Positions 9,641 through 38,993 of a DNA stretch of 56,709 bases are shown piece by piece. Both the position numbers and the translations under genes were made by a program. Source of the stretch: Ignavibacteriaceae bacterium (GTDB lineage: Bacteria; Bacteroidota; Ignavibacteria; Ignavibacteriales; Ignavibacteriaceae). The DNA lies in the NCBI GenBank assembly GCA_046704565.1, contig JBJKRP010000148.1:1-56709 (forward strand). The letters run 5' to 3'. Under the pieces are notes generated by a model. It had not been told where the DNA came from. It did no database searches and was given only the letters and a program-made list of their open reading frames with translations. The number at the start of each line of letters is the position of its first letter. Position 1 is the stretch's first letter.

Positions 9641-10204
9641 ATGTTGAAGAAACAGGTGTTAGTATTGTTTGCGGTTCTGTTTATTACTGCTTTTATAAAA
9701 GCGCAGGGTCTATATTTAGGACCGCAGGTCGGATGGCAGAAAGCTTCAAGCGCTGACGACGGCAAATTCATGTTCGGTGCTGCCGTTAGAATTAAGCTTT
9801 CCGACGCATTAGGCGTAGAAGGCTCTATCAATTACAGACAGGAAAATTATAACAACGGAAACGTAACAGTTACAAGCTACCCGGTAATGGTTACAGGAAT
9901 GATTTATCCAATAAGCATAGTTTACGGCGCTATTGGATTCGGCTGGTATAATACTTCGATTGCCTACTCGCCTTCACTCCATCAATTGGGAATAACTGAC
10001 CAGACCGAACAAAAGGTCGGATGGCACTTCGGCGCCGGAGTTGAGCTTCCGCTAAGCGGCTCAGTCAGTTCCCCAAATACTATTCTGACTGCAGATATAA
10101 GATATGTCTTTTTAAATTATGATTTCCAGCAGTTTCCCGGTTCGGGTAATCTGAAAAGTGATTTTATTGTACTTACAGCCGGGTTGCTCTTCAACCTTGA
10201 ATGA
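9641..10204 (+). CDS. Small outer-membrane beta-barrel protein
   Basis: Signal peptide MLKKQVLVLFAVLFITAFIKAQ, alternating amphipathic beta-strand pattern, and aromatic-rich strand ends. Confidence 0.55.
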   Translation: MLKKQVLVLFAVLFITAFIKAQGLYLGPQVGWQKASSADDGKFMFGAAVRIKLSDALGVEGSINYRQENYNNGNVTVTSYPVMVTGMIYPISIVYGAIGFGWYNTSIAYSPSLHQLGITDQTEQKVGWHFGAGVELPLSGSVSSPNTILTADIRYVFLNYDFQQFPGSGNLKSDFIVLTAGLLFNLE

Positions 10205-10475
10205 ACATCTCGGCTGCGGAACTTCAACTTAATAAAAAGAAGTTTCTAAATGCTCATAATGTTTTGCCGGTAAACAGGTATAGTGCAAATCGTACGCCTT
10301 ATGCCTGTATACCGGTATACCTTAGCCATCTTAAAATAAATATATCCCGGCACATTTAAATTAAAGTTTGTACGAATACAGGCTCCCCTTTATTCCTTTC
10401 ACAATAAATTGCTATATTGTATATCAATTGAAGAAAATATTTTTGTGAAGAGAATCTTACAGTGGAGAATAATAT

Positions 10476-13400: not shown

Positions 13401-14357
13401 CAGATGCTTCGCGTTGCCGACATTCCGTCGGAAGAACGCCATGAGGAAGTACTAAAGTATATCCTTACTGAAGATGTAAGCAGTTTAATCGAACGCAAAA
13501 AGGAAAAGCAATCTGCAAAGATCGAAGGCGACCCGGAGCTTTTAAATAAATACTTATCTGAATTATCACAACTACCTGGTCTTGAATCTGTTAAAAAATC
13601 GGTTGAAAAACTTATAAGTAGCTTGAAGGTGGCAAAGCTCCGGAAACAGCGGGGGCTGAAAGTTATTCCCAAAAATTTAAATTCTGTTTTCACCGGAAAT
13701 CCGGGAACAGGTAAAACAACCGTTGCAAGATTGCTGAGCAAAATTTATAAGGAGCTTGGAATTATAGAAAAGGGGCACTTGATCGAAGTAGACCGCTCAA
13801 ATTTAGTTGCGGGCTACCAGGGGCAGACGGCATCAAAAACAAACGAAGTGATCAATAAATCACTCGGCGGTACTTTGTTTATCGACGAAGCCAATACCCT
13901 TATCCGCGGCATTTCGGATTTTGGTCAGGAGGCGGTTGATACACTTCTAAAAAGGATGGAAGATGATCACGGCAAGTTTGTGGTTATTGTTGCCGGCTAT
14001 ACTGATGAGATGAAAGATTTTCTAAATTCTAATCCGGGTGTTGAATTAAGATTTCCTAATATTTTTAATTTTGAAGATTACACTCCGCGGCAAATGCTGG
14101 AGATTGCAAATATTATAAGCGAAAAGAACGGCTACAAGCTTGATGAAGGCGCATGGCAGCTTCTCCTGGAAATCTTTACGGACTTATACGACAGGCGTGA
14201 TAAAAGCTTCGGTAATGCAAGGACGGTAAAAAATATTTTATATAAGGCAATAAGCAACCAGGAAGAAAGAATCCTTACCCTGCTTAACCCGGATGATAAT
14301 GACCTGATGACTATTTCATTCGAAGATGTGGATAAGATTGAGTTGAATGAAATTTGA
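10476..14357 (+). CDS. TPR-repeat protein with three tandem CbbX/SpoVK-type AAA+ ATPase modules
   Basis: TTG start after a GTGGAGA RBS, with N-terminal TPR-like repeats. There are three Walker A motifs GNPGTGKT, at nt 11970, 12825 and 13695. Each is followed by GG(L/T)LFIDEA (Walker B), LLKRMED, (I/V)xAGY, NSNPGxxxRF and FGNAR. Confidence 0.8.
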   Translation: MTPEELDDLLKEAYEHLRQGRYRMALTAAKQVYDERQYDYNAASCLAWALLENGYPSQALEMANLAVQISGEDVNSRLYRGFLLMRMSIFDGAISDLDWAIRKKPDQLVWAHLNKARALGGLERFFEGLEEINKAIEIDKGETQKLSKIRDWFRKTLGYDEGFFSGIFSKKRSLMKEGEEALGDKEAWFSLWVARDTLNTPSLKDEHEDAHLLELKSLLEMFQIKNAFQKAESVKAILQDDVRFKALYAKILKQYSGEPSEIFEEELIEPVQKRTDAEIYENKLFHVYQVKTYDLIENLRAGKRTYLLQFSEETIRYIGVEIVLDNPFSGNKSIDVEGTAIWYLNEAEVGQHHFTLGMEKDWKVVEFVQSWGTEKPGFWKEGQGKVDIYLDNYLVCSRWFLVGQSEIFNFEEAQVHLDESEPLEKPVTEQPTEVSSSSLKPQEEKSLEELLAELDTYIGLQGVKQSMRDFVDYLKFLNERKKLGLKTQESFSVHSVFLGNPGTGKTSIARLLGKIFKAMGLLKNGHVIEVDRSGIVGQYIGETAQKTNKVIDEAIGGLLFIDEAYMLKKEGNAQDFGQEAIDILLKRMEDGKSEFAVITAGYPEEMNSFINSNPGLKSRFSHLFNFDDYTPEELVEIFKLFADREEYSVHEQALEALKKQFTNLYRKRDKSFGNARLVRNYFNESKIHLSKRYLKIPENERNKESMTTILNEDVLAIIQSGGIKDAKIGIDEEALTKALNKLNNLIGMEPVKKEINELVKLAKFYSEQGENLHDKFSSHIIFLGNPGTGKTTVARLFSEIYSALGILPKGHLVEVDRQGLVASFVGQTAEKTKAAIDKAIGGTLFIDEAYTLIKSGEGSGADFGKEALDTLLKRMEDDRGKFVVIAAGYTNEMNSFINSNPGLQSRFTKRIFFEDYSPEELMQITENLFESKGHILDEEAREPLRKYFNKIYRSRDKTFGNARLVRDLVESTLKNQMLRVADIPSEERHEEVLKYILTEDVSSLIERKKEKQSAKIEGDPELLNKYLSELSQLPGLESVKKSVEKLISSLKVAKLRKQRGLKVIPKNLNSVFTGNPGTGKTTVARLLSKIYKELGIIEKGHLIEVDRSNLVAGYQGQTASKTNEVINKSLGGTLFIDEANTLIRGISDFGQEAVDTLLKRMEDDHGKFVVIVAGYTDEMKDFLNSNPGVELRFPNIFNFEDYTPRQMLEIANIISEKNGYKLDEGAWQLLLEIFTDLYDRRDKSFGNARTVKNILYKAISNQEERILTLLNPDDNDLMTISFEDVDKIELNEI

Positions 14358-23685: not shown

Positions 23686-25032
23686 TCACTGCCGCAGGTT
23701 ATATCTTTTTATCTTATTGTACAGGGTAACTCTGTCAATCTCCAGCACCTGAGCACTGCGCGAAATATTCCATTTGTTTTCATTCAGCACTTTGTAGATA
23801 TGCTTTCTCTCTATAGCGGAAAGGCTCATGTCGCCGTCATCTACTTCAAAATGAATTGAAGAAATTCGGATCGGCAAGTCTTCAACATTAATTTCATCAT
23901 ACCTTCCAACAACAACAGCACGCTCAATCGCATTCTCAAGTTCCCGTACATTGCCGGGCCAGTCGTAATTAACAAGAAACTCTGCGGCTTCCGCGGATAT
24001 ATCTCTTGCAGGTTTATTTAATCTATTCGAAAATTTTTTTATGAACGCCTTAGCCAGCAGAATTATATCTTCCCGCCTATCACGTAAAGGCGGAACCAAA
24101 ATTGAAAAAACCTTGAGCTTATAAAACAGATCCTCTCTGAACTTGCCTTCATTCATTAACTTTTCGAAATTTGAATTCGCAGCAGCTATCAATCTAAAGT
24201 TTGTGTTTACGGGTTCGCTTCCGCCAATACTTAAGAACTTATTTGTCTCGAGCACCTTTAATATCTCAACTTGAATCTTCGGCGAAATTGAATTTATCTC
24301 GTCAAGATATAGAGTACCGCCTTCTGCCAATTCAAAGCTGCCTTTCTTCCGCAGATGAACTCCTCTTTCCACGTCCGGTTCTTCTCCGAACAATTCCTGC
24401 TCAAGCATTGCTTCGGTCAAGGCTCCGCATTTTACTGAAATAAACGGAAAATATTTCCTGCTGCTGTTGGTATGAATTACTTTTGCCAGCAGCTCTTTTC
24501 CCGTGCCGCTTTCTCCAAGTATCAGTGTCGAGGCATCCGTTGCGGAAATTGTACTTATCGTCTCAAACAATATTTTCATTTGCATATTTTCTCCGATAAG
24601 TAAATCCGGCTTTGAAATGCTTGCGATATTTTCTTTCAAGGACCTGTTCTCAATCTGAAGCTTTCTTTTGTCAATTGCCTTCTCAACAAGGATAGTCAGC
24701 TCATCCGGGTCTACCGGTTTAGTGACATAATCATAGGCGCCTTCCTTTAAAGCTGCAATGGCTGTAGGAACGGATGCAAAAGCAGTAATCATAATAACTA
24801 TTGAATCTTGATCCAATGCTTTAATTTCTTCTAATAACTGCAGTCCGCTTATTCCGGGCAATTTTAAGTCAACCAATACAACATCATATTTTTGCTTTTG
24901 AAATTTTTCCAAGCCGGATTCGCCGTCCCCGGCAATTTCAACAAGATAGCCTTCGTTCTCGAACCAGTTAAATAAAGATTCCCGAATAATCTTTTCGTCA
25001 TCAACAACCAATATTCTCTCTCTTTTATTCAT
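23686..25032 (-). CDS. NtrC-family response regulator (REC + AAA+ + Fis-type HTH) lacking the GAFTGA loop
   Basis: REC domain (DDE...VDLKLPG...KP), Walker A GESGTGKE, Walker B LYLDEI, GNVRELEN, and C-terminal HTH ISRSAQVLEIDRVTLYNKI. Where GAFTGA is expected the sequence reads ELFGEEPDVERGVH. Confidence 0.85.
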   Translation of the reverse strand: MNKRERILVVDDEKIIRESLFNWFENEGYLVEIAGDGESGLEKFQKQKYDVVLVDLKLPGISGLQLLEEIKALDQDSIVIMITAFASVPTAIAALKEGAYDYVTKPVDPDELTILVEKAIDKRKLQIENRSLKENIASISKPDLLIGENMQMKILFETISTISATDASTLILGESGTGKELLAKVIHTNSSRKYFPFISVKCGALTEAMLEQELFGEEPDVERGVHLRKKGSFELAEGGTLYLDEINSISPKIQVEILKVLETNKFLSIGGSEPVNTNFRLIAAANSNFEKLMNEGKFREDLFYKLKVFSILVPPLRDRREDIILLAKAFIKKFSNRLNKPARDISAEAAEFLVNYDWPGNVRELENAIERAVVVGRYDEINVEDLPIRISSIHFEVDDGDMSLSAIERKHIYKVLNENKWNISRSAQVLEIDRVTLYNKIKRYNLRQ

Positions 25033-25724: not shown

Positions 25725-26264
25725 TTAGCTGCAGAAATATTTGTAGGCTTCAACATGATCGGCGCAACTTCGGCAGTAACCGTTTCCTTTTATATCCACT
25801 TCTTCAATACCGGGAGAAGAATGCATTACACAATCCCAATCAGTACAATGACGAAGACCGAAGTTATGACCGAGTTCATGCAGTATTTCTTTCATCGTTC
25901 TTTCCAAAAGCAGATTGTTGTTAGATTTACCGGAATAAAATTCTTCGTGCAGCCTGCATACAGAGACTATAGAATGCTTTCCGTCGAGCTGAGCCTCGCC
26001 GAAAACAAATGTAAGCACGGGGACAAAAATATCTACGTCGGTTATTAAAATTATTTTGCCGTCTACGTTATTCGTTAGCTCCATTGCCCTGGCAATTACG
26101 CCGGTAGAATAGTATTGCCCCCTTTCTTTAGAAAGGAAATTTTCAAGCTCCAGGTTCAATTCTAATAATTGCACCTGAGAGGTAAACATTTTAGATAGAT
26201 TAACTAAAATGTTTTTGAGCAGCCAGGCGTTCGAAAATCTTACCGGAACAATAAAGATGTTCAT
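25725..26264 (-). CDS. Archaemetzincin-type zinc metalloprotease (peptidase M54-like)
   Basis: HELGHNFGLRHCTDWDCVMH...CRSC matches HExxHxxGxxxCxxxxCxM...CxxC. The start codon overlaps the upstream regulator's stop by 1 nt (TGATG). Confidence 0.7.
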   Translation of the reverse strand: MNIFIVPVRFSNAWLLKNILVNLSKMFTSQVQLLELNLELENFLSKERGQYYSTGVIARAMELTNNVDGKIILITDVDIFVPVLTFVFGEAQLDGKHSIVSVCRLHEEFYSGKSNNNLLLERTMKEILHELGHNFGLRHCTDWDCVMHSSPGIEEVDIKGNGYCRSCADHVEAYKYFCS

Positions 26265-27619
26265 CAGTCGGCATTTTTTTGAAGGTTATATTTATTGATT
26301 TTATTATAGAGAGTAACACGGTCAATTTCCAACACCTGAGCGCTGCGCGAAATGTTCCAATTATTTTCGTTCAGTATTTTGTTGATGTATCTCTTTTCCA
26401 TAGCAGCAAGGCTTTTGCACTCCTCATCAAAGTATAAGTTGTTTAACGAAACATGGAACGGCAAATCTTCAACAAGGATAGAGTCCGTCTTTCCAACGAC
26501 CATTGCTCTCTCAACAGCATTTTCAAGCTCGCGAACATTGCCCCGCCAATCATAATTAATTAAGAAATCCATAGCCTCCTTTGAAACACCTTTTACCGAC
26601 TTGTTCATCATTAATGAAAATTTATTGATAAAGAAATTTACCAGCAGCGGTATGTCATCTCGCCTTTCGCGCAGCGGAGGTATAATAATAGAAAAAACAT
26701 TCAGCCGGTAATATAGGTCTTCCCTAAACTTTCCTGCTTTCACGAGCTCTTCAAGAGGTTCGTTGGTCGCAATAATAACTCTGAAGTCGCTTTTAATAAG
26801 TTCGTTGCCGCCTACCCGGTTAAATTGCTTTGTTTCTATCACACGCAGCAGCTCTATCTGCATTTTGATTGAGATAGAACCGATCTCATCAAGAAAAATA
26901 GTCCCGCCGTCTGCAAGCTCAAACTTGCCTTTGCGCCTGAACTGCGCACCCGTAAATGCGCCCTTCTCATGACCGAACAGCTCGCTCTCAAGAATTGTTT
27001 CTGCTAAAGCCCCACAGTTAACCGGGATTATCGGAAAATATTTTCTCTTACTGTTAATGTGGATTGCCTTTGCTACAAGCTCTTTACCGGTTCCACTCTC
27101 GCCTCTTATCATTACAGTAGTGTCTGTCGGCGCAACAGTTTGAATAAGATCATAAATTTTCTTCATCTGGTAGCTCTCGCCGATCAAATTGTCCGGTCTG
27201 ATGATCTCGTCGATGCTTTCCTTCAAGTGAATATTTTCAATCTTCAGCGCTCTCTGCTCAAGAGCCTTTTTTACCAGGTGAGCAAGCTCGTCCGGGTCGA
27301 CCGGCTTGGTAACATAATCATAGGCGCCGTTTTTAAGAGCAGCTATTGCAGTCGGAACGGATGCGAAAGCGGTAATAAGAATTATCACCGAGTCTTTATC
27401 GATTGATTTAATCCTGTTCAATAGTTCAATACCGCTCATCCCGGGCATTTTCATGTCAACCAGGAGAAGATCAAATTTAGTCTCTTCATATTTCTGCAGA
27501 GCTATTTCTCCATCCCCGGCAGTATCAACATCGTATCCTTCTTCTTCGAACCAGTGGAAGAGAGATTCTCTTACGATCTTTTCATCATCCACAATTAATA
27601 TTTTTTCCTTTTTATCCAT
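26264..27619 (-). CDS. Sigma-54-dependent response regulator (NtrC family)
   Basis: REC domain, GESGTGKE, an intact ELFGHEKGAFTGAQ, GNVRELEN, and HTH ISRSAQVLEIDRVTLYNKI. Confidence 0.9.
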   Translation of the reverse strand: MDKKEKILIVDDEKIVRESLFHWFEEEGYDVDTAGDGEIALQKYEETKFDLLLVDMKMPGMSGIELLNRIKSIDKDSVIILITAFASVPTAIAALKNGAYDYVTKPVDPDELAHLVKKALEQRALKIENIHLKESIDEIIRPDNLIGESYQMKKIYDLIQTVAPTDTTVMIRGESGTGKELVAKAIHINSKRKYFPIIPVNCGALAETILESELFGHEKGAFTGAQFRRKGKFELADGGTIFLDEIGSISIKMQIELLRVIETKQFNRVGGNELIKSDFRVIIATNEPLEELVKAGKFREDLYYRLNVFSIIIPPLRERRDDIPLLVNFFINKFSLMMNKSVKGVSKEAMDFLINYDWRGNVRELENAVERAMVVGKTDSILVEDLPFHVSLNNLYFDEECKSLAAMEKRYINKILNENNWNISRSAQVLEIDRVTLYNKINKYNLQKNAD

Positions 27620-27627
27620 TTAATTAC

Positions 27628-29220
27628 CTAAGAAATATTCTCGTTTGCAGGCAAGATCAATCTGAATGTCGTTCCTTTAAGCGAAGTCTTTTCAACCTCT
27701 ATTGAGCCGTTGTGGTTTGTAACAATTCCGTAAACTACCGCCAGCCCAAGACCGGTTCCCTTTGAAGCTTCCTTAGTGGAATAGAACGGCTCGAAAATAT
27801 GCGGAAGGTCTTTGTTCGAAATGCCTGTCCCCTCGTCAATTATCCTGATAACCGCAGCATTATTTTCCCAGGCAAGTCGAACAACTATCTTACCTCCTTG
27901 CGGCATTGCTTCAATCGCATTAATTAGCAGGGACATTAAAGCCTGTTGAACTTTCTGTGCGCTGCAGTTAATCTCAATTGTCTCAACAGGATATTCCTTC
28001 TCAATTGCAACGTGATAGATTTCAAGATGGTGCTGTATTACCGTTATGCTCTTGTCTATTATCCTGGTAAGATTCTCCCTTGAAAACTCATCTCTTTCTT
28101 CATGAGAGAACAGCAGCAGGTCTTTTACTATTTTCCCGCAGCGCGAGGATTCGCCTGAAATCAGCTCAAGATATTCTATTAATCTCGAATACTCCGAATC
28201 TCTCTGCATCGATTGAAGCTTCCTGGTAATCAGCTTGCTGTAAGTCAAAATACCTTCCAGCGGATTGTTAAGCTCGTGTGCAACTGTTGCTGACAGCTTT
28301 CCTAGCGATGCAAGCTTTTCAATCTGATTTACCTGGTTATAAATATTTTTTAGCTCTTCCGTCTTTTCATTCACCTTATCATTTAAGGTCTCGGACCAAT
28401 TTTTAATTTCCTTGTATGCATCATCAAGTTTTACAGACATATCATTAAATCTATGCGCAAGCTGTCCGAGTTCATTTTGGGTATCGAGATCAATTTTATA
28501 TGAAAGATTCCCCTTGCTGATTTCTTCAATCCCTTTGGTAAATTTTTTAATCGGTCTATTGACAAGTACAGTAATGAATAGTCCGCAGAAGAAAGAAATT
28601 ACAAGGGTAATCAATAATGCATTTAGAATAATTTCCCTGGTATTCTTCGCTATAATCGCATCAAGCTTGTCCAGCCCTACCACAACATCAAGTACACCAA
28701 GTATTTGAACATTGGGTGAATGCGCATGGCAGGCGGCATTGTAGCAGTCAGGCTCATTCTGGATCGGATTAATTAGACCGAGCACTCTTTTGTTTTCAGG
28801 ATTCCTGTAAATACGGATTTTGTTTTGATTGTTTAAGCTGTTTAAAGGCACATTACTATTGTGGCAAACAATGCATGCCTCGGCTGACATGTCTACCTTT
28901 TTCATTATTTCTGCAGTATCAGTCGAGAATATTATCATCCCCTGCTTATTGTAAATTCTGATATTATTAACACCCATCTCGGTTCCGAGTGTCTTAATAA
29001 TTTCATGTACGTCTTCACGGCGGTTCAGGAGCATGCTGTAACGCGTCGACTTCTTAATCAAGTCGCTGATATTGTATGCACTTTCAAGACGTGATTCGGT
29101 TAAATATCCGTCAAGATTCCTCACGATAAAATATGTGTACGCGGCAAGAATGCTGAAGAGTATCAGAGAGATGGAAACTATAAGTCTTACACTTAATTTA
29201 TTTATCAACTTAGTTGTCAT
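27628..29220 (-). CDS. Sensor histidine kinase with periplasmic c-type heme-binding motifs, HAMP domain
   Basis: TM1, then a periplasmic domain with CIVCH (CxxCH) and CYNAACH (Cx4CH), then TM2 and a HAMP domain. Kinase motifs are H-box VAHELNNPL, N-box LLINAIEA, DEGTGI and GTGLGLA. Confidence 0.85.
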   Translation of the reverse strand: MTTKLINKLSVRLIVSISLILFSILAAYTYFIVRNLDGYLTESRLESAYNISDLIKKSTRYSMLLNRREDVHEIIKTLGTEMGVNNIRIYNKQGMIIFSTDTAEIMKKVDMSAEACIVCHNSNVPLNSLNNQNKIRIYRNPENKRVLGLINPIQNEPDCYNAACHAHSPNVQILGVLDVVVGLDKLDAIIAKNTREIILNALLITLVISFFCGLFITVLVNRPIKKFTKGIEEISKGNLSYKIDLDTQNELGQLAHRFNDMSVKLDDAYKEIKNWSETLNDKVNEKTEELKNIYNQVNQIEKLASLGKLSATVAHELNNPLEGILTYSKLITRKLQSMQRDSEYSRLIEYLELISGESSRCGKIVKDLLLFSHEERDEFSRENLTRIIDKSITVIQHHLEIYHVAIEKEYPVETIEINCSAQKVQQALMSLLINAIEAMPQGGKIVVRLAWENNAAVIRIIDEGTGISNKDLPHIFEPFYSTKEASKGTGLGLAVVYGIVTNHNGSIEVEKTSLKGTTFRLILPANENIS

Positions 29221-29318: not shown

Positions 29319-30044
29319 TTAGCTGATTAGAGCTTGAAGTATGCCGACGTATTTTTCCCGCCCAACAAGTTGATGTAAATATTTAACTTGATCGCCTCCG
29401 TCAAGCATAGTAAGCCCGACTTCCGGATAGTTTGATTTAATCTCTTCGACAATCCCAAATGATTTTTTCTGTAGCACCTGCCATTCGCTATGTTCTATCC
29501 TCCCGGCAGAAACTTCCTGCTCAATAGCACCGATTATAGCTATCCATTTTGACTTTGCAAGATCATCGGCTGGATTATTAACCTTATCGTAGATGGAAAA
29601 GTTCATCGGTGCGGTTAAGGAGCTTGTTCCCCACTCACCGAAGAACTGAACGACGGGCTGCCCGCTTAAGATGCTTCTGCTTTGACTAAAATCCATAATT
29701 ATTCCGACATGATCGAGGAATGAAATGAAGAGAGGATTAACCCCGAGATAATAAGTATTTGGCAAAACCTGTTTGATAATAAAACAATGCTTTAAGTAAA
29801 TAAATTTTTCATCATACTTAATTGATTTCAGTCTTCTTTCAACTAAGTTGACGGCGCTCAGGATGTTATTTGTCTGCATCTCATTCTCGCCGTAGTTTCT
29901 CATTACTTTATCGAACCGGCAATTTTCACAGTCAAACTTTTTATCGCACAGCTTGTATTCAATAACATTAGACGCCATCCATATGCACTTCAGCAAGCCG
30001 TAAGAGTTATCGGAATAAAAATTATCTTCGTTCATTTTACTCAC
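29319..30044 (-). CDS. Cys-rich N-terminal domain fused to a GcvH-like (lipoyl-fold) domain, no lipoyl lysine
   Basis: N-terminal C-x12-C-x5-C-x2-C motif (CIWMASNVIEYKLCDKKFDCENC). The C-terminal half aligns by eye to GcvH (LGVNPLF..., SGQPVVQFFGEWGTSSLTAPMNF, KWIAII), with Trp at the lipoyl-Lys position. Confidence 0.5.
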   Translation of the reverse strand: MSKMNEDNFYSDNSYGLLKCIWMASNVIEYKLCDKKFDCENCRFDKVMRNYGENEMQTNNILSAVNLVERRLKSIKYDEKFIYLKHCFIIKQVLPNTYYLGVNPLFISFLDHVGIIMDFSQSRSILSGQPVVQFFGEWGTSSLTAPMNFSIYDKVNNPADDLAKSKWIAIIGAIEQEVSAGRIEHSEWQVLQKKSFGIVEEIKSNYPEVGLTMLDGGDQVKYLHQLVGREKYVGILQALIS

Positions 30045-30210: not shown

Positions 30211-30483
30211 TTATTCGCTTTGATTTTGTTTCTTATTAGTCTCAGCAGTTTTTTCATCTGTAATATCAATCCCGGAGCTTTTATTCACCTCTTTGTTTTC
30301 TTTCGATTTACCGCCGTCATACATTGTGGCTCCTACGAGACTAATGATAGGCTCTGTATTACTTGTTGAAATTTTTTCCATACGCTTACCCTTTGACTTT
30401 AACGCCATCGGATTAATTATAAGTTGAACGAAAAGGTCAACTGCAGCAAAGACAAGGATTAGAACTAATATAAACGTAAGCAT
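30211..30483 (-). CDS. Small single-pass membrane protein, hypothetical
   Basis: The ATG follows AAGGAA. The N-terminal TM helix is MLTFILVLILVFAAVDLFVQLI, followed by a charged tail. It competes with an antisense ORF at 30130-30369. Confidence 0.35.
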   Translation of the reverse strand: MLTFILVLILVFAAVDLFVQLIINPMALKSKGKRMEKISTSNTEPIISLVGATMYDGGKSKENKEVNKSSGIDITDEKTAETNKKQNQSE

Positions 30484-31086
30484 GACATATTCCTTATTTC
30501 TATCTGTTACTTTATCCTAAAAAATCAATTAATATACCATAAAGAAAATATGATTTCCCCTTTTCGTAAGAGTATGACAGGTAATGAGTTATAGAGTTTC
30601 CGGAGAATATCTAAATAGAATGGAATTAAAAAAATGTAGGCATATTCAACAGTCTTATGTTGAATTTTCCGTCAAACAACGGAGTCTTTCATTACTGCGC
30701 TTGCATCTTTTTCCTGCAGAATTATAATCGTAGGCGAGAAAAAATTAATTGCGCATTAACAACTATTTTTATTTAGCAATTGAAATAAGTATACCAGACG
30801 AAAAAAAGGATCAGAGAATTTCTTTACAAATCCCAAAATAAATTCTCAAATACAACAATAGAAACCGAGATGTGTTGCCATTGGTGAGAAGCCTTTTATT
30901 ACATTAAACAGAAAAAATTTTTCAAAGGTTTTATTCCATTTAAATTTTAATGTTTATAAAAATTAAGAAATAGAAATATTGCAGGTAACAGTTCTTGGCA
31001 TACTTTTATATAAACTTCAAAGGTCGAATTAACTAAATAATAGGACATAAGTAAAAAATTAATTTTTCACGAAGAAAGAGGGTAAG

Positions 31087-31989: not shown

Positions 31990-33234
31990 ATGGTATCTTA
32001 TATGAAACCGTCTCCGATTACTAAAAAATTTCTTACGCCCGGAGTTTTTGTTTTAATTCTTCTTGCGGTAAACGGACTTTGTTTCCTGTTTGCCCGATTG
32101 TTTTTTGGAATTGGGGCAGTCACGAATCTTAATAACCAATATCCGTGGGGAATCTGGATCGGAGTTGATGTTGCGGCAGGTGTTGCTTTAGCAGCAGGCG
32201 GTTTTACTACAGCAGCGCTCGGTCATGTTATGCACCGTACACACTATCACGATATTGTAAGACCTGCATTATTAACAGCAATGCTCGGATACACATTTGT
32301 CGCATTGAGTGTCTCAATTGATATTGGAAGATGGTATTACATCTGGCATCCTCTAATAATGTGGAATGGAACTTCTGCGCTCTTTGAGGTAGGAATTTGC
32401 GTGATGATTTATCTAACCGTTTTGTATATCGAATTTCTTCCAATAGTCACCGAAAGGTTTATCAATCATGTAAACTTTAAAGGCGCAATTTCCTTCTTAA
32501 ACAAACCTGTTGAAAAACTCCTCGTGGTTTTAGATAGAGGATTATCAAAAGTAATGTTTGTATTTATTATCGCCGGTGTTGTACTTTCAAGTCTGCATCA
32601 ATCCTCTCTCGGAACATTAATGGTTATTGCAGGACCGAAAATGCATCCGTTATGGCAGACACCCATTTTGCCTCTGCTATTTTTATTGTCGGCAATCTCT
32701 GTTGGGTTTCCAATGGTAATTTTTGAATCGATGATCGCCGCACGTTCATTCGGTTTAAAGCCTGAAATGGAAGTATTGTCCAGGTTGGGTTCAATAGTAG
32801 CGCCTATTCTTGGAGTATATCTTGCTTTCAAGTTAGGCGATATGTTTATCAGGGAAACGTTTGTTTATCTTAGAAGTTTCAATACGCAAAGTGTAATGTT
32901 CACAATTGAAGTTTTGTTCGGGATAATAATCCCGCTTAGGATGTTTCTATCCAAAGCCGTTTTAAAATCACCCCTTTGGTTGTTTGTCGCTTCGTGCCTG
33001 GTAATTTTCGGAGTTCTGATAAATAGAATAAATAACTTTGTTACGGCTTATACGCCTCCTTATTCATTCGGCTCTTACTTCCCCTCGTTTGGAGAAATTT
33101 CAGTGACTGTCGGATTCATTTCTCTACTCGTCTTATTGTACCGGGTTATTGTCTTTAACTTCCCGGTAATCAGCGTCTTCGACAGGTATCGTACCCCAAG
33201 AACCAAATACACAATTAGAGGCAGCGAGCTATGA
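31990..33234 (+). CDS. NrfD/HybB/PsrC-like polytopic quinone-interacting membrane subunit
   Basis: 414 aa with about 10 TM helices. It starts 3 nt after the FeS subunit's stop, and its stop overlaps the cytochrome start as ATGA. Confidence 0.8.
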   Translation: MVSYMKPSPITKKFLTPGVFVLILLAVNGLCFLFARLFFGIGAVTNLNNQYPWGIWIGVDVAAGVALAAGGFTTAALGHVMHRTHYHDIVRPALLTAMLGYTFVALSVSIDIGRWYYIWHPLIMWNGTSALFEVGICVMIYLTVLYIEFLPIVTERFINHVNFKGAISFLNKPVEKLLVVLDRGLSKVMFVFIIAGVVLSSLHQSSLGTLMVIAGPKMHPLWQTPILPLLFLLSAISVGFPMVIFESMIAARSFGLKPEMEVLSRLGSIVAPILGVYLAFKLGDMFIRETFVYLRSFNTQSVMFTIEVLFGIIIPLRMFLSKAVLKSPLWLFVASCLVIFGVLINRINNFVTAYTPPYSFGSYFPSFGEISVTVGFISLLVLLYRVIVFNFPVISVFDRYRTPRTKYTIRGSEL

Positions 33235-34394
33235 GAAAAATAATATTCATAAACGCTCTATTATTTACAGCTGTTCTTATTGGGCAAACAAAGCCTCCCA
33301 AAGGTCATGAACTCTTAACAAAGCTGACATGCAAAACATGCCATGGATGCGAAGTCCCGACGAAGCAAGACCCTTGTCTCACTCCATGTCCAAGAAATCA
33401 GATGGTGACAGTTCATCAATCAGCAGACAAGACTGTCAATGTAGTCAAGCTTGATGAGCTGTCAAAAAAATATTTACATGTTGTTTTTCCGCATAGAGCT
33501 CATGCTCAAATGTCGGAAATGTCGGGCGGCTGTATGACATGCCATCATTACAACACGAGCGGACCAATACAGCCATGTAAGAATTGCCATCAAGCCCAAA
33601 GGAACAGAGCCGATATCAGCAAGCCGGACTTAGAGGCAGCATACCACCGGCAATGTATTAACTGCCATCGCGAGTGGAGCCACGAGAATAGCTGCGTTTC
33701 ATGCCATGCATTAAGGACAAAAGATAGCGCCGTACATGTTACTACGGCTAAAAATTCTGAATCTATAAATCATCCTAAGATAGAAGAACCGGCAAAAGTT
33801 ATTTATAAGACAACCAGCAGTAAAGGCAAGCTTGTTACATTCTATCATGATGAACATTTTAATTTATTCGGCATAAGCTGCATCAAGTGCCATCAGCAGG
33901 AAAACTGTACAGAGTGTCATGACAAACAAAAAACCTCAATGCCTCAAAGGCAGGCAAATGTTCCTATAGAAATTCACAAGCCGGCGGCCCAGCATCATAA
34001 GCCTTGCTTTTCTTGCCATAGCGAGGATAAGTGCACTGTATGCCATTCAAACAAGCCTGAAGGTCCCTTTGACCATTCGGAAAGAGCAGGTTGGGCTTTG
34101 AATAAATTTCATAAAGTGCTGGCTTGTTCGCAGTGTCATGGTACTTCAGGTAGATTCACCAGGCTTGATAACAAGTGCGAGAGCTGCCACAACAATTTTG
34201 CTGCGGGTAAGTTCGATCATAGTATAACCGGTCTTAAGCTGGATGAAAATCATAAGGACGCCGACTGCGTTGATTGTCATCTTGAAAGGAATTTTTCGAA
34301 TCCTCCGTCATGCAAAAATTGCCATGATGATAAAAGTTATCCTAAAAATAAGCCCGGCAAGGAAGTTAAGGTTTCGTTAAAAAAGGAAAAATAA
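33231..34394 (+). CDS. Periplasmic multiheme cytochrome c (13 CxxCH motifs)
   Basis: A signal peptide followed by 13 CxxCH motifs, counted directly: CKTCH, CMTCH, CKNCH, CINCH, CVSCH, CIKCH, CTECH, CFSCH, CTVCH, CSQCH, CESCH, CVDCH, CKNCH. The spacing is cytochrome c3/c7-like, for example FPHRAH...CMTCHH. Confidence 0.9.
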   Translation: MRKIIFINALLFTAVLIGQTKPPKGHELLTKLTCKTCHGCEVPTKQDPCLTPCPRNQMVTVHQSADKTVNVVKLDELSKKYLHVVFPHRAHAQMSEMSGGCMTCHHYNTSGPIQPCKNCHQAQRNRADISKPDLEAAYHRQCINCHREWSHENSCVSCHALRTKDSAVHVTTAKNSESINHPKIEEPAKVIYKTTSSKGKLVTFYHDEHFNLFGISCIKCHQQENCTECHDKQKTSMPQRQANVPIEIHKPAAQHHKPCFSCHSEDKCTVCHSNKPEGPFDHSERAGWALNKFHKVLACSQCHGTSGRFTRLDNKCESCHNNFAAGKFDHSITGLKLDENHKDADCVDCHLERNFSNPPSCKNCHDDKSYPKNKPGKEVKVSLKKEK

Positions 34395-34449: not shown

Positions 34450-36333
34450 TTGCGCTTTGGGAAAATTGAAAACATGTTCAGGAAAATCGGTTTCAAGTTA
34501 ATATTAGCTGTCGGGGTTACGGCGCTTATTACAATAGGTATTTTTGCTTATTTCAATATACAGTCCCATACCAGCAGTTTACTTGCAGAAGTCGAACGGA
34601 GCGCAAACCAGCTCAGTGAAACTGTAAAGCATAGTACGCGCTACGACATGCTTCTGAACCAGCGTGACCGTATTCATAAAATTATTAATACTATTGGCGA
34701 GCAGCCAGGGATTAGAGATGTGAGAGTCCTTAATAAAATGGGAGAGATTATTTATTCTTCTCACACTGAAGATATCGGCAAGATGGTTGATAAGAAAACC
34801 GAAAGCTGTTATAAATGCCATGCCGCCGACAAGCCTCTTGAAAGACTTCCGATTAGAGACAGGACAAGAATTTTTAGAATAAGCCCCGACTCATCCAGGA
34901 TTATGGGAATCATAAGCCCCATTTATAACGAGCCTTCTTGCTGGCAAGCCGACTGCCATGCCCACTCTAAAAGCCAGACGGTACTCGGCGTTCTTGATGT
35001 TACAATATCTTTAAGCGATGTTGATGCTCAAATCAAAAAAGGTGAAATCGAAATTGTAATCTTCGCGATTTCAGGTGTGATTGCTTTAAGCTTCATCGTT
35101 GGATTTTTTGTACGAAGATGGGTTGACAAGCCTGTAAAAGAATTATTGAATGCTACCAACCAGGTTGGAGTCGGGAACCTTAATTATACTATTAAGGACA
35201 GACGCGATGACGAACTTGGAATGCTTGCCCGTTCATTCAACAATATGACAAAGAAACTTTCTGAAGCCCGCATGCAGCTTTTCCAATCGGATAAAATGGC
35301 TTCGCTCGGAAGACTTGCCGCCGGAGTTGCACACGAAATAAATAATCCTCTGACCGGAGTCCTGACTTACAGCAGCTTTCTTTTAAAACGTACTCAAAAC
35401 AATCCCGAAATGCAGGAAGACTTGAAGGTGATTGTTCGGGAGACCAAAAGAAGCCGTGAAATTGTAAAAAGCCTTCTTGATTTTGCGCGTCAATCAATTC
35501 CTAAAAAGAATGATGCAAACATAAACGATATTATTCTTCACGCTGTTAGCGTTGTGGAAAACCAGCTTGCTATCGATCATATTAAATTAATAAAAAATCT
35601 TGACCCCGATCTTCCAAACACAACGATAGACTCCAACCAGATACAACAGGTTATAATCAATCTTCTGGTAAATGCGCATGATGCAACCGGAAAGGAAGGC
35701 GGTACAATTACTATTTCTTCCCTTAAGATAAGCCTCTCGCCATACGGGATTACTCATATTAAAAAGGCTCTATGTCCTAAACGCCATGATATGATGGATA
35801 ATGAAGTAAAGATCGAAGGTATGGCTTCAATAAAAGTAAAAGTACGCTCGAACGGCAGCGAAGGTTTTATTAATTTAGATCCTGTTTATGGAAAGACCAG
35901 GCACCAGTACGGAATTGAGCCCGATATCAAAAAAGGTATTGCAATGATGTGCCCGCAGTGCAGTCAATCCTTAATTATCGAGGGAAAGAAATGCCCGAAG
36001 TGTGAGGCACCGGTTTATAGTTTCGAGATCCCGTCTCAAGGTTTTTTTGAAGGCTGTACAAGGAAAGGCTGTGGATGGCAGAAATGGGATTACGTTGATG
36101 TCGGCGGTAAGAAAGAATATATTGAAGTAAAAATATCCGATACCGGGTGTGGAATTGCAAAAGAAGATTTATCAAAAATATTTGAGCCTTTTTTTAGTAC
36201 AAAGGGACAAAAAGGAACCGGACTTGGTTTGGCGGTTATTTGGGGAATTATCGATAACCACAACGGGACTATTGGTGTTGAAAGCGAATTAAATAAAGGA
36301 ACGGAATTTACCATAAGGCTGCCGCTTATATAG
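34450..36333 (+). CDS. Sensor histidine kinase with periplasmic heme-c motifs, HAMP, and a Cys-rich insertion in the ATPase domain
   Basis: Paralog of the 27628-29220 kinase, with CYKCH and CWQADCH in the periplasmic domain. Kinase motifs are H-box VAHEINNPL, N-box NLLVNAHDA, and G-boxes DTGCGI and GTGLGLA. About 130 extra residues lie between the N and G1 boxes. The ATG at 34474 (MFRKIG...) is a plausible alternative to the TTG start at 34450. Confidence 0.85.
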   Translation: MRFGKIENMFRKIGFKLILAVGVTALITIGIFAYFNIQSHTSSLLAEVERSANQLSETVKHSTRYDMLLNQRDRIHKIINTIGEQPGIRDVRVLNKMGEIIYSSHTEDIGKMVDKKTESCYKCHAADKPLERLPIRDRTRIFRISPDSSRIMGIISPIYNEPSCWQADCHAHSKSQTVLGVLDVTISLSDVDAQIKKGEIEIVIFAISGVIALSFIVGFFVRRWVDKPVKELLNATNQVGVGNLNYTIKDRRDDELGMLARSFNNMTKKLSEARMQLFQSDKMASLGRLAAGVAHEINNPLTGVLTYSSFLLKRTQNNPEMQEDLKVIVRETKRSREIVKSLLDFARQSIPKKNDANINDIILHAVSVVENQLAIDHIKLIKNLDPDLPNTTIDSNQIQQVIINLLVNAHDATGKEGGTITISSLKISLSPYGITHIKKALCPKRHDMMDNEVKIEGMASIKVKVRSNGSEGFINLDPVYGKTRHQYGIEPDIKKGIAMMCPQCSQSLIIEGKKCPKCEAPVYSFEIPSQGFFEGCTRKGCGWQKWDYVDVGGKKEYIEVKISDTGCGIAKEDLSKIFEPFFSTKGQKGTGLGLAVIWGIIDNHNGTIGVESELNKGTEFTIRLPLI

Positions 36334-36342
36334 GCGAATGGA

Positions 36343-37149
36343 ATGAATAAACAATTCGACATATTGATTATAGACGACGAGCAAGTTATTACCGAAGCAG
36401 TAAACAAAATCTGTTCGGCGGAAGGATACAGGGTCGACTCGAGCCTTGATGCCGCAGATGCAATCATTAAACTTGAAACGAATTTTTACCGCTTGATATT
36501 ATGCGATATAATGCTTCCGGGGATGGACGGATTCCAGTTTCTCGATGAGGTCTCTAAGAAAAAAACTATTTCGCCCGTTATAATGACTACTGGGTTTTCG
36601 ACAGTAGAGAATGCCGTTAAATCATTATACAACGGGGCAATAGATTTTATACCGAAACCGTTTACAGCCGATGAATTACTTTCATCCGTCTCACGCGGCT
36701 TAAAATATTTGGAAATTCAAAAAAAATTATTCGAGACGGGAAGCCGCAGGAATGATGAATCTATAATCTATGTTCCATGTCCGGCTAAGTATTACAGACT
36801 TGGTTATTCAAGCTGGGTTAACTCAGATACCTCAGGCTCTGCTGTTGTAGGAGTTACGGATTTATTCCTTAAGACCATCGCTTCAATAAACGGAATTGAC
36901 TTGCTAAAGGTCGACGGCGAAATAGTGCAGGGAAATTCATGTGCTCAATTAAGCTCAAAGGAATATTATTCCCATGCAGTGTTAAGCCCGGTCAGCGGGA
37001 GAATAATAGAAAGGAACGAAAGCCTGATTGAAGAAATTAACACCATCGAAAAAGACCCGTACTTTAACGGATGGCTTTACAGAATAATACCATCCGATTG
37101 GCAGTACGAAATACAAAACTTAATACCGTGCAGTTCGGATAGAATGTAA
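36343..37149 (+). CDS. Response-regulator receiver fused to a GcvH-like domain
   Basis: REC domain: IIDDE, LCDIMLPGMDG, MTTG, PKPF. The C-terminal stretch VVGVTDLFLKTIASINGIDLLKVDGEIVQGNSCAQLSS...SPVSGRIIERNESL...DPYFNGWLYRI aligns to the GcvH core VGITxxAQ...PVSGxV...PYxxGW. Confidence 0.7.
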   Translation: MNKQFDILIIDDEQVITEAVNKICSAEGYRVDSSLDAADAIIKLETNFYRLILCDIMLPGMDGFQFLDEVSKKKTISPVIMTTGFSTVENAVKSLYNGAIDFIPKPFTADELLSSVSRGLKYLEIQKKLFETGSRRNDESIIYVPCPAKYYRLGYSSWVNSDTSGSAVVGVTDLFLKTIASINGIDLLKVDGEIVQGNSCAQLSSKEYYSHAVLSPVSGRIIERNESLIEEINTIEKDPYFNGWLYRIIPSDWQYEIQNLIPCSSDRM

Positions 37150-37198
37150 ATAGAATTATAATAAACGAGAGGAAGAAAAACTCTAAGGAGAATACAAT

Positions 37199-38356
37199 AT
37201 GCCACTTTTAATTATTGCAGTTATATTATTTGTTATCGCCGATGTATTGATAAGATACTCGGGTAAAAGGATACAGGAAAAGAAGCTACGCAAAGACCGC
37301 GAAGCCGCTTTAAACGTAAGTTTGAATCTTGATTTTACAAGAGAGGCAAAGTCCTTAAAACGCGTTGAAGTTGAAAGTCCTAAAGCTAAAATTTTATGTG
37401 TTGATGACGAGCCGGTAATACTCGACAGCTTCCGGAAAATTCTTGTGCTTGAAGGATATTCGGTTGATACGGTTGAAAACGGAAAGGAAGCAGTAGGGCT
37501 GGTTCAAACACATCATTATGATTTCGTTTTCACCGACTTAAAGATGCCGGAAATGGACGGAGTTGAGGTTACCAAGTCCGTAAAGCACATAAGACCCGAT
37601 ATTGATGTTGTAATCATAACCGGGTACGCTACTGTTGAAACCGCCGTTGAGTGTATGAAGTTCGGTGCAATGGACTATGTACAGAAGCCTTTCACCGAGG
37701 ATGAACTGCTTGACTTCGTTAAGAAAATTTTAATTAAACGGCAGGATAGAATTCAGAAACAGTTGAAACCGCAGGTTCACATCACTCACTTCGCCGAATC
37801 TAAACATTTTATGACTTACGAGTTCGCTATTCCTGGAGGAGTTTTCATCTCCGCAGGACACTGCTGGGCAAGCATGGAACAGGACGGCGCCGCAAAAGTA
37901 GGTATCGATGACTTTGCCAAAAAGCTCATTGGTAAAATTACCGGTATCGAGCTTCCCAACCTGGGAATGGTTGTTAAAGCCGGACAGCCGTTGTTTACAA
38001 TTAAACAGGATGACCGCAGTGTCGCATTCAATTCGCCGTTGAGCGGCAAGGTAATTAAAATTAATACTATCCTGCCGACAAATCTTGAAGTCCTTGATGT
38101 TACCTCATATAATACCAACTGGATTTGTGTAATTGATACTGAAGATTTAGATAGTGAACTAAAAACCCTGAATATCGGCAAGAGCGCAGTCACTTTCTAT
38201 CAGGATGAAATAGACAGGTTCATTCAGCTTAGGAAAAATATTCCGGTTAAGGATAGTTCGCAGACCCAGAGGAACAACGAACTTTATATAGGAGAATTTG
38301 AAAAGCTTGATAATGCCGACTGGGACAAGATGGTCACAGAGTTATTCAAAAAATAA
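37199..38356 (+). CDS. Membrane-anchored receiver domain fused to a GcvH-like domain
   Basis: N-terminal TM helix MPLLIIAVILFVIADVLI, then a REC domain (CVDDE, FTDLKMPEMDG, ITGY, QKPF). The C-terminal stretch KVGIDDFAKKLIGKITGIELPNLGMVVKAGQPLFTI...SPLSGKVIKIN is GcvH-like. Confidence 0.7.
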   Translation: MPLLIIAVILFVIADVLIRYSGKRIQEKKLRKDREAALNVSLNLDFTREAKSLKRVEVESPKAKILCVDDEPVILDSFRKILVLEGYSVDTVENGKEAVGLVQTHHYDFVFTDLKMPEMDGVEVTKSVKHIRPDIDVVIITGYATVETAVECMKFGAMDYVQKPFTEDELLDFVKKILIKRQDRIQKQLKPQVHITHFAESKHFMTYEFAIPGGVFISAGHCWASMEQDGAAKVGIDDFAKKLIGKITGIELPNLGMVVKAGQPLFTIKQDDRSVAFNSPLSGKVIKINTILPTNLEVLDVTSYNTNWICVIDTEDLDSELKTLNIGKSAVTFYQDEIDRFIQLRKNIPVKDSSQTQRNNELYIGEFEKLDNADWDKMVTELFKK

Positions 38357-38379: not shown

Positions 38380-38433
38380 GCTTCGATGAGCTGAAGGCAT
38401 GTTATACGGGCTTGTCGAAGCGCAATTTTTTTT
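38380..38433 (+). terminator. Intrinsic terminator after the kinase/REC-GcvH operon
   Basis: GCTTCGA (38380-38386) pairs with TCGAAGC (38415-38421), and AGC/GCT extends the stem. A T8 run follows at 38426-38433. Confidence 0.5.
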
Positions 38434-38465
38434 ACTTTAATGAAAACGCTGCCGGATTGTTAACT

Positions 38466-38993
38466 ATGGTAACTTCATTCAAAGATAGAATTGAAATTCT
38501 TAAGGGCGACATAACTAAATTAAATGTTGATGCCATAGTTAATGCTGCAAACTCATCGCTGCTTGGCGGTGGAGGCGTGGATGGCGCGATCCATCGCGCT
38601 GCAGGTCCCGGGCTTTTAGACTATTGCAGAAAGCTGAATGGCTGTCCAACCGGTGAAGCTAAAATAACTCCCGGGTTTAATCTACACGCAAGGTTTGTTA
38701 TTCACACTGTTGGACCTGTTTGGCGGGGAGGTAATTACGATGAAGCAAACCTTTTGTCGAACTGTTACAAGAATTCACTCCGTCTTGCCGTTGAAAATAA
38801 CCTGGTGAGTATAGCTTTCCCGGCTATCAGTACTGGCATTTACGGCTACCCACTCGAATATGCGGCTAAGACCGCCCTAAAAACTGTCAAAGAATTTTTA
38901 TCATCAGACAACTCTATCGAAAAAGTAATTTTTGTCTGCTTCAGCCACTTTGACTTTGAAATATATAAGGAACTCTCTGCAAAGCTGGTTTAA
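38466..38993 (+). CDS. Macro-domain protein (O-acetyl-ADP-ribose deacetylase, YmdB-like)
   Basis: [24 protein letters not shown] and [13 protein letters not shown] prefer the ATG at 38466 because the TTG start at 38412 would lie inside the upstream terminator hairpin. Confidence 0.85.

Follow-up and report, generated by a model that had tools for sequence, protein, structure and literature searches.

What can a response regulator do when its receiver is joined neither to a DNA-binding domain nor to an enzyme? Response regulators nearly always act on DNA, second messengers or motors; there is little documentation of two-component systems that control a respiratory membrane complex directly, after translation. 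Two adjacent genes, P1 and P2, raise the question. They lie on a 56,709-nucleotide stretch of DNA from an Ignavibacteriaceae bacterium (assembly GCA_046704565.1, contig JBJKRP010000148.1, forward strand; "the window" below means this whole stretch), and each encodes a receiver (REC) followed by a domain resembling GcvH, the H protein of the glycine cleavage system. In both, the lysine that carries lipoate in true H proteins has been lost; the genes belong to a respiratory operon whose order is conserved, and the GcvH-like module is reused without a receiver. We lean, though not heavily, towards P1 and P2 being two-component regulators that act by docking through a lipoate-free H-protein fold, with P2 as the phosphorylation-switched accessory of a quinone-interacting complex.

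Results

P1 and P2 join a receiver to an H-protein fold

The two proteins comprise the following parts (aa, amino acids):

36343-37149, + strand: P1, soluble response regulator, 268 aa; open reading frame (ORF) confirmed
36361-36690, + strand: P1 receiver, aa 7-116; Pfam Response_reg, 89.5 bits (cut-off 30.2)
P1 aa 109-132: long alpha-5/linker helix
36808-37104, + strand: P1 GcvH-like domain, probably lipoate-free, aa 156-254; Pfam GCV_H, 62.2 bits
P1 aa 196-219: hairpin holding Q196, C200 and H211
P1 C146 (in VPCP) and C263 (in IPCSSDR): clade-specific cysteines
37199-38356, + strand: P2, membrane-anchored response regulator, 385 aa; ORF confirmed
P2 aa 1-19: transmembrane (TM) helix, D15 and R19 invariant
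37391-37720, + strand: P2 receiver, aa 65-174; Pfam Response_reg, 113.3 bits
37856-38203, + strand: P2 GcvH-like domain, probably lipoate-free, aa 220-335; Pfam GCV_H, 61.3 bits
P2 aa 336-385: C-terminal extension, helical

An earlier note, made by reading the sequence alone, had proposed that both proteins carry complete receiver signatures and lack any DNA-binding or enzymatic output. Both points hold. The receiver active sites (D11, D12, D55, T83 and K105 in P1; D69, D70, D113, T141 and K163 in P2) are invariant in alignments of 52 and 47 orthologues respectively, and Pfam and NCBIfam find no DNA-binding or enzymatic output domain in either protein, only REC and GCV_H; NCBIfam returned receiver matches and a sub-threshold GcvH match, with no dedicated model among the 25 best matches listed. 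Judged by their active sites and by the kinase encoded next to them, P1 and P2 are bona fide response regulators. Their best receiver matches – in NCBIfam, in a sequence search of the PDB and in Foldseek – are of the NtrX, NtrC1, DctD and AtoC types, and the AlphaFold2 models of both show a long helix after beta-5.

P1 and P2 are collinear paralogues with 31% identity. As the same note had read them, one is soluble and one anchored. A hydropathy scan finds no hydrophobic anchor helix in P1 and a single one in P2, at the N-terminus (mean hydropathy 2.58), followed by a run of basic residues which, by the positive-inside rule, would place the receiver and the GcvH-like domain of P2 in the cytoplasm. 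An exact-sequence look-up of P1 returned no second contig.

Evidence that the C-terminal domains have the H-protein fold, a likeness first drawn by eye, came from both profile and structure searches. The curated Pfam cut-off for GCV_H is 22.2 bits, and P1 and P2 score nearly three times higher; the isolated domains match solved GcvH chains in a sequence search (E ~3e-12 to 5e-12). AlphaFold2 models (mean pLDDT, a per-residue confidence score, 76 for P1 and 79 for P2) were compared with the PDB by Foldseek, which matched the GcvH structures 3a8i, 3ab9, 1onl and 1htp with template-modelling scores, TM(target), of 0.72-0.80 for P1 and 0.83-0.90 for P2 (root-mean-square deviation 1.7-2.2 Å for the latter). 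The structure search with both models found receivers and H proteins, and no other fold.

A common family that has lost the lipoyl-lysine

An exhaustive HMMER search with the P1 C-terminal domain against 1.84 billion representatives clustered at 50% identity gave 1303 matches at E<=1e-3. A receiver is present in 100 of the best 150 representatives by phmmer; 144 of these 150 were aligned and scanned with Pfam, which found Response_reg in 96 and GCV_H in 140. Counts out of 96 below refer to these receiver-fused representatives. The receiver-GcvH architecture is thus common rather than rare, and the family spans Ignavibacteria, Calditrichia, Aerophobetes, Elusimicrobia, Aminicenantes and many further lineages. 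A profile search of a 5.8-billion-protein collection added little, yielding mostly fragments and canonical GcvH, and a search of plasmid proteins found ordinary gcvH genes and nothing else.

A critical issue is the fate of the lipoyl-lysine. In the HMMER alignment D272 of P2 occupies the column of E. coli GcvH K65 (numbered from the initiator methionine), in agreement with the aspartate that the reading by eye had placed there. Compared with GcvH, the P1-type hairpin has one extra residue, and the corresponding column is E207 (HMMER) or Y208 (MAFFT); the lysine that had been seen just beside the position in P1 is K206, one to two residues before the column. K206 is kept in 30 of the 52 orthologues and a lysine stands in the equivalent column of 13/96 representatives; as it is not conserved, we rejected it as a shifted lipoylation site. 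The P2 hairpin tip also varies, position 273 being arginine in 28 and lysine in 19 of the 47 orthologues. Across the family the canonical column holds lysine in 2/96 representatives, the residue being mostly G, E or D (MAFFT), and the few stand-alone matches that resemble true GcvH retain it. Lipoylation of lipoyl domains is intolerant of a lysine moved by one position. Since the tip residues vary, whereas an attachment lysine would be invariant, neither domain looks lipoylatable; both probably lack a lipoylation site, which strengthens across the family what had been suggested for this one locus. No lipoate ligase, lipoyl synthase, GcvT, GcvP or sirtuin was found in a scan of the window ORFs of 150 aa or longer, which covered the whole set except a few close to the 3' end. 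With the defining lysine and the metabolic partners both absent, P1 and P2 do not appear to be functional H proteins.

Other residues have become conserved in the receiver-fused representatives: Q196 (91/96), H211 (77/96) and C200 (60/96). The cysteines C146 and C263 are invariant in the 52 P1 orthologues, where they lie in segments modelled with pLDDT <50; among the representatives both are present in 19, neither in 64 and one only in 10.

The names given to these proteins in databases are automatic – 'response regulator', 'CheY-like chemotaxis protein/glycine cleavage system H lipoate-binding protein', 'glycine cleavage system protein H' – and we found no publication uniting 'GcvH-like' with 'response regulator'; related literature searches gave nothing relevant. 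Databases hold the architecture in many copies, annotated domain by domain. To judge from the literature that could be searched, this kind of output has not been described, in line with the earlier note, whose author did not recognise it as characterised.

P1 and P2 belong to a conserved respiratory operon

Four genes precede P1 and P2:

31087-31986, + strand: HmcB/HybA-like 4Fe-4S (iron-sulfur, FeS) protein with a twin-arginine translocation (Tat) signal, RREFFK, and a C-terminal hydrophobic tail anchor; best NCBIfam matches HmcB and HybA
31990-33234, + strand: NrfD/HybB/HmcC-type integral membrane quinone-interacting subunit; NF008133, E 1e-104; HmcC, E 8e-77
33231-34394, + strand: periplasmic multihaem cytochrome c with 13 CxxCH motifs
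34450-36333, + strand: HK_a, presumed cognate histidine kinase, composed of TM helix, periplasmic domain, TM helix, HAMP, HisKA and HATPase
35737-36099, + strand: insertion of ~120 aa (aa ~430-550) in the ATP-binding domain of HK_a, with C442, H446, C501, C504, C515, C518, C536 and C541

Intergenic spacing is -4 to 55 nt, with 9 nt between the end of HK_a and the start of P1. In order to see how far this arrangement extends we scanned a collection in which each species is represented by a single genome, using the motif EKDPYFxGW, taken from 12 closer sequences; a diverse alignment of 46 sequences had no sufficiently conserved stretch. The scan located 333 loci of the short-protein (P1) clade, and locus counts out of 80 refer to the best 80 of these. 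They come from Ignavibacteriales, Melioribacteraceae (including a metagenome-assembled genome of Melioribacter roseus), Calditrichaceae and related bins, with P1 identities of 51-75%. The order FeS protein, NrfD-type subunit, cytochrome c, kinase, P1, P2 is found in essentially every long enough locus of the 80, and the order kinase, P1, P2 is kept in at least 74. The operon gene order holds from Ignavibacteria out to relatives of ~35% identity.

Tail-anchored FeS proteins with a Tat signal have been described as a class (bioRxiv 10.1101/2023.11.02.564894), and the Melioribacter genome paper treats NrfCD complexes as quinol:acceptor reductases feeding periplasmic multihaem cytochromes (PMC3534657). 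The NrfCD pair of that paper is probably the counterpart of the FeS/NrfD pair in the window.

The periplasmic sensor of HK_a (34807-34965, + strand) has a CxxCH motif at C120, a Cx4CH motif at C164, and H172, all 97-100% conserved in 70 orthologues; the kinase gives a weak Pfam match to a haem-containing Geobacter chemoreceptor sensor family. The conservation of CxxCH, Cx4CH and the histidine suggests a covalently bound haem in this sensor and in that of HK_b, a paralogue listed below. The residues of the cysteine-rich insertion, in a zinc-ribbon-like pattern, are conserved in 68/70 orthologues; distant kinases of 518-521 aa lack the insertion.

The association with redox genes extends to distant relatives

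For distant members, which share ~30-38% domain identity, we looked at the contigs on which they lie. In one locus (L086) cytochrome c, FeS and NrfD genes diverge from a histidine kinase gene followed by REC-GcvH proteins of 266 and 388 aa, the longer having the aspartate-bearing TM helix and the hairpin seen in P2. A contig from JGI repeats the full operon, with a kinase of 625 aa and regulators of 266 and 380 aa; a pair of one short and one long, TM-anchored regulator thus recurs at ~34-38% domain identity. Elsewhere (L082) a kinase and two tandem REC-GcvH genes are followed by genes for a CCG (HdrB-like) protein and flavoproteins, and the second REC-GcvH protein (3347-4684) is fused to an HdrC-like 4Fe-4S domain. 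In Aerophobetes (L084) a kinase and a REC-GcvH gene have Rrf2, multihaem cytochrome and cytochrome b genes as neighbours. In L087 a REC-GcvH gene adjoins multihaem cytochrome and HdrC/HdrB-like genes and one (9996-11159) for a receiver fused to a Ni_hydr_CYTB membrane cytochrome b. Taken together, the link between the architecture and respiratory complexes is strong.

The GcvH-like module also occurs without a receiver, in three forms. The first is a protein of 224-238 aa in which a P2-like TM helix (…VIDxxV/R…) is joined by a '(A/V)TMYDGG … W.EF..F' motif at the C-terminus; in the second the P2-type module stands behind a periplasmic domain resembling periplasmic binding proteins (PBP) and a TM helix; in the third it is capped by a C-x13-C-x6-C-x2-C motif, as in the window protein at 29319-30044. 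TM-GcvH-like genes are followed by a signal-less, tail-anchored FeS protein and then NrfD in L033, L039 and L041 (~230-1700, - strand); in L089 the order is TM-GcvH-like, FeS, NrfD, then Cys4-GcvH-like, and in L092 a PBP-TM-GcvH-like gene precedes a Tat-signal FeS protein. One further protein (P0170) fuses three GcvH-like domains to a flavin adenine dinucleotide (FAD) oxidase, an FeS domain and a CCG domain. P2-like TM helices with the conserved aspartate recur both with and without a receiver. Given these receiver-less forms and their position beside FeS/NrfD genes, the lipoate-free H-protein fold is a module that respiratory clusters reuse with interchangeable inputs.

The HmcB-like FeS proteins of L033, L039, L041 and L089 (6693-7436) have a tail anchor and no signal peptide; their clusters presumably therefore face the cytoplasm.

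Regulators and other genes in the window

The following features flank the operon:

23686-25032 and 26264-27619, the latter - strand: two copies of an NtrC-type sigma-54 activator, REC-AAA+-HTH_8
27628-29220, - strand: HK_b, paralogue of HK_a with a matching haem-motif periplasmic sensor
29319-30044, - strand: Cys4-GcvH-like protein, 241 aa, with C-x13-C-x6-C-x2-C, a GcvH-like centre and a 'GLTMLDGG' extension
30211-30483, - strand: small membrane protein, 90 aa, with an aspartate-bearing TM helix, MLTFILVLILVFAAVDLFV, and a 'LVGATMYDGG' motif
30996-31011, + strand: conserved sigma-54-like element, TGGCATACTTTTATAT, 91 nt upstream of the FeS gene
38412-38993, + strand: macrodomain gene of the O-acetyl-ADP-ribose deacetylase (MacroD/YmdB) type; NF001664, 239 bits (cut-off 200)

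The Cys4-GcvH-like protein has no Pfam match, and BLASTP found no similarity between it and P2; in a profile comparison its centre matches the receiver-fused GcvH-like family (hhalign probability 88.6%, E 2.6e-6). It accompanies the HK_b/NtrC module across loci, and the module as a whole adjoins the operon in differing arrangements (the window, L066 and L080). This protein and the FeS/NrfD complex, both named beforehand as possible partners, co-vary with REC-GcvH across genomes. The 90-aa ORF is conserved in at least seven related loci and lacks a GcvH-like domain; from its sequence it looks like a minimal, GcvH-less relative of the TM-GcvH-like proteins.

A strict sigma-54 consensus scan of the window found nothing above chance and missed the element upstream of the FeS gene. 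It emerged from a comparison of 59 orthologous upstream regions, as a TGGCA/TGGCT element that is conserved but degenerate at -12 and lies ~45-105 nt before the FeS gene. Scans for sigma-70 promoters and for terminators gave nothing informative. TGGCA is present in 23/59 regions; the motif class TGG(C/T)NN…TTT(T/G) occurs in 19/59, against a mean of 0.54 in shuffles, and distant loci carry a TGGC(T/G)T-N5-TTG(T/C) form. Given this element and the adjacent NtrC-type activators, transcriptional control of the operon need not come from P1 or P2.

The macrodomain gene lies directly 3' of P2 and near the cluster in 37/80 loci, in varied arrangements (for example L049, L066 and L073); it has no sirtuin or ligase nearby and is absent from deeper relatives. 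Between the two NtrC-type activator genes lies a Peptidase_M54 (archaemetzincin-like) gene (25725-26264, - strand), an association which may be real since L087 also has this peptidase gene (1215-1811) between kinase and NtrC gene. The product of 10476-14357 (+ strand), 1293 aa long and with three copies each of an AAA module and an AAA_lid_6 domain, is unrelated to P1 and P2.

Discussion

A lipoate-free H-protein fold as a proposed regulatory output

The phosphotransfer, the docking partner and the direction of the effect we infer as follows. HK_a would read the periplasm through a haem-c-type sensor, as its CxxCH and Cx4CH motifs suggest, and – given the operon adjacency and the intact active sites – would phosphorylate D55 of P1 and D113 of P2. 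Receivers of the NtrC1/DctD/NtrX class re-arrange their dimer on phosphorylation. Because the P1 and P2 receivers are of this type and lead into a long alpha-5/linker helix, phosphorylation would most likely re-arrange a dimer and so alter the presentation of its two GcvH-like domains. P2, held at the membrane by its N-terminal helix with the conserved aspartate, would most likely serve as a phosphorylation-switched accessory subunit of the FeS/NrfD/13-haem complex, tuning electron flow or assembly post-translationally; we propose this role because the same module, without its receiver, is an accessory gene of FeS/NrfD complexes. P1 would be the soluble partner; it could have a cytoplasmic target, for example the NtrC module or the Cys4-GcvH-like protein, or could compete with P2 for phosphoryl groups. 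Transcription of the operon would probably be governed separately, through the neighbouring HK_b/NtrC sigma-54 system.

Several observations weigh against this account. AlphaFold2 gave no confident packing between the domains (pTM, the predicted template-modelling score, 0.60 for P1 and 0.48 for P2). The FeS protein and the cytochrome of the window are periplasmic, and the NrfD loops and short tails leave a small cytoplasmic surface for docking. One distant member (L088) has no respiratory neighbours, the only such locus among those examined. The sigma-54-like element of the window and its clade lacks the canonical -12 GC, and the neighbouring Rrf2 and NtrC genes suit a role linked to transcription equally well.

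A bolder extension, which we put forward tentatively and hold to be possible rather than probable, is that the pseudo-H-protein acts in NrfD/FeS and Hdr-like modules at large as a dedicated regulatory subunit, docking where a carrier or partner would, and that P1 and P2 gate their complex at the protein level. The inputs would be interchangeable – receiver phosphorylation, the Cys4 redox or metal motif, a periplasmic ligand-binding domain – and the membrane type would carry in addition the 'DGG' extension.

Alternative explanations

The transcription-linked contexts invite an explanation in which the phosphorylated GcvH-like domain binds and modulates a DNA-binding regulator (the adjacent NtrC-type sigma-54 activators or, elsewhere in the family, a repressor of the Rrf2 type), P1 and P2 being partner-switching co-regulators that control expression indirectly. 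The HK_b/NtrC/Cys4-GcvH-like module does stay beside the operon, in its varied arrangements; NtrC-type genes lie immediately upstream in L087 and L088; and the Aerophobetes member, adjoining Rrf2 and cytochrome genes, echoes Desulfovibrio, in which rrf1-rrf2 lie downstream of the hmc operon and their products are described as regulating hmc expression (bioRxiv 10.1101/2023.11.02.564894, citing Keon 1997). Against this, the membrane, where P2 is anchored, would be an odd place for a protein that assists a soluble transcription factor; the P2-type module is found directly in FeS/NrfD operons that have no two-component genes; and the fusion partners are FeS domains, not DNA-binding domains. We regard indirect transcription control as unlikely, though it is the main alternative. 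Rather more doubtful is the notion that P1 and P2 are cofactor-bearing redox sensors in which C200 and H211, joined in the P1 clade by C146 and C263, bind a metal or an FeS cluster and integrate cytoplasmic status with the kinase signal. The frequency of H211 and C200 among the representatives, the co-occurrence of C146 with C263, their invariance in low-confidence segments – as a site requiring a ligand or partner could appear – and the Cys4 motif of the sister protein at 29319-30044 all speak for it. It cannot be the general mechanism, however, because P2 and its clade lack these cysteines and histidines; the co-occurrence may reflect a single clade, and a cofactor would in any case be compatible with docking, adding to it rather than replacing it.

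Two further possibilities question the fate of the GcvH-like domain itself. If the receivers were phosphate sinks that drain phosphoryl groups, and the GcvH-like part a functionless, decaying relic, then the presence of two receivers per kinase, which resembles sink systems, and the lack of any output activity readable from sequence would be accounted for. The constraint on the domains out to relatives of ~35% identity, with near-invariant family-specific residues, and their reuse with other input modules make this a very improbable explanation. Scarcely credible is an acyl or lipoyl carrier acting through a shifted lysine (K206 in P1; K/R273 or K269 in P2), its arm delivered or sequestered under phosphorylation: the longer hairpin could bring K206 to the turn and position 273 of P2 is always basic, but the poor conservation of K206, the rarity of lysine in the canonical column, the arginine at 273 in most P2 orthologues and the absence of ligase, lipoyl synthase, GcvT, GcvP and sirtuin genes among the scanned window ORFs all tell against it.

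Docking through a lipoate-free H-protein fold, the reading to which we incline, matters for several reasons. The family is tied to the multihaem cytochrome/NrfD/FeS and Hdr-like modules that drive metal, sulfur and extracellular electron transfer in sediments. Finding what the domain binds would give a role to an output domain that is common yet unannotated, account for an accessory gene that recurs with NrfCD-type quinone modules, and show how the ancient fold of a swinging-arm carrier became a signalling part. Were direct gating true, it would suggest that bacteria tune respiration directly by a two-component system, not through gene expression. Cultured carriers of the operon, such as Melioribacter roseus, make the model testable.

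Comparison with known systems

As in CheY, CpdR, RssB and PhyR, the receivers of P1 and P2 would act by protein contact rather than by transcription or catalysis; none of these regulators, nor Rrf1, is known to have an output with the H-protein fold. Regulators of the OmpR, NarL, NtrC, LytTR and GGDEF types differ in having a DNA-binding or catalytic output, of which nothing recognisable is found in P1 or P2. NtrC1, DctD and NtrX, whose receivers are the closest, likewise differ: P1 and P2 lack both AAA+ and helix-turn-helix (HTH) domains, and the linker leads instead into the GcvH-like domain.

Rrf1, encoded with the Hmc complex of D. vulgaris, offers a parallel by context alone: it is a response regulator encoded with a multihaem/FeS/NrfD-type complex. 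That Rrf1 (DVU_0530) might itself be a REC-GcvH protein is no more than a lead; one preprint aligns it with single-domain CheY-like receivers, which speaks against the idea, and DVU0530 goes unmentioned in the supplementary files of Rajeev 2011.

The N-terminal domains of NqrA and RnfC, in respiratory complexes, are cofactor-free barrel-sandwich-hybrid domains: they have a lipoyl-like fold but no swinging arm, and their role in membrane redox machines is structural or one of interaction. There are weak Pfam cross-matches (NQRA_N, E 3e-4, in P2; RnfC_N in the triple-GcvH fusion). They are, however, permanent domains of catalytic subunits without receiver control, and the sequence kinship of P1 and P2 is clearly to GcvH.

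LbpA is a GcvH-like lipoate carrier of the sHdr systems of sulfur oxidisers, where it works with Hdr-like CCG and FeS proteins. It shares with GcvH-L, the lipoate carrier of the SirTM/macrodomain operon (PMC4518038), the recruitment of an H-protein paralogue to a redox or stress system, as we propose for P1 and P2; both carriers, though, keep and need the lipoyl-lysine and dedicated ligases, whereas P1 and P2 have no such lysine. P1 and P2 are not of the LbpA type, having no lysine and no Hdr or ligase genes among the scanned window ORFs; a functional analogy is possible, since some distant REC-GcvH relatives are fused or adjacent to HdrC/HdrB-like proteins. Membership of the GcvH-L/SirTM/macrodomain module, whose operon unites a SirTM sirtuin, an LplA2 ligase, a Zn-macrodomain and a lipoylatable GcvH-L, we rejected: an ordinary macrodomain stands alone, with no sirtuin or ligase among the scanned ORFs, and its linkage is limited to close relatives.

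The nearest comparison remains GcvH itself (PF01597), with which P1 and P2 share both the fold and a recognisable sequence family (Pfam ~61-62 bits, phmmer E ~1e-12, Foldseek TM 0.72-0.90). They depart from it in lacking the lipoyl-lysine, in the Q..C...H pattern that the P1 hairpin carries in place of the E-S-V-K of GcvH, in their fusion to a receiver and, in P2, to an anchor, and in the company they keep: in all related loci their neighbours are respiratory and signalling genes rather than gcvT or gcvP.

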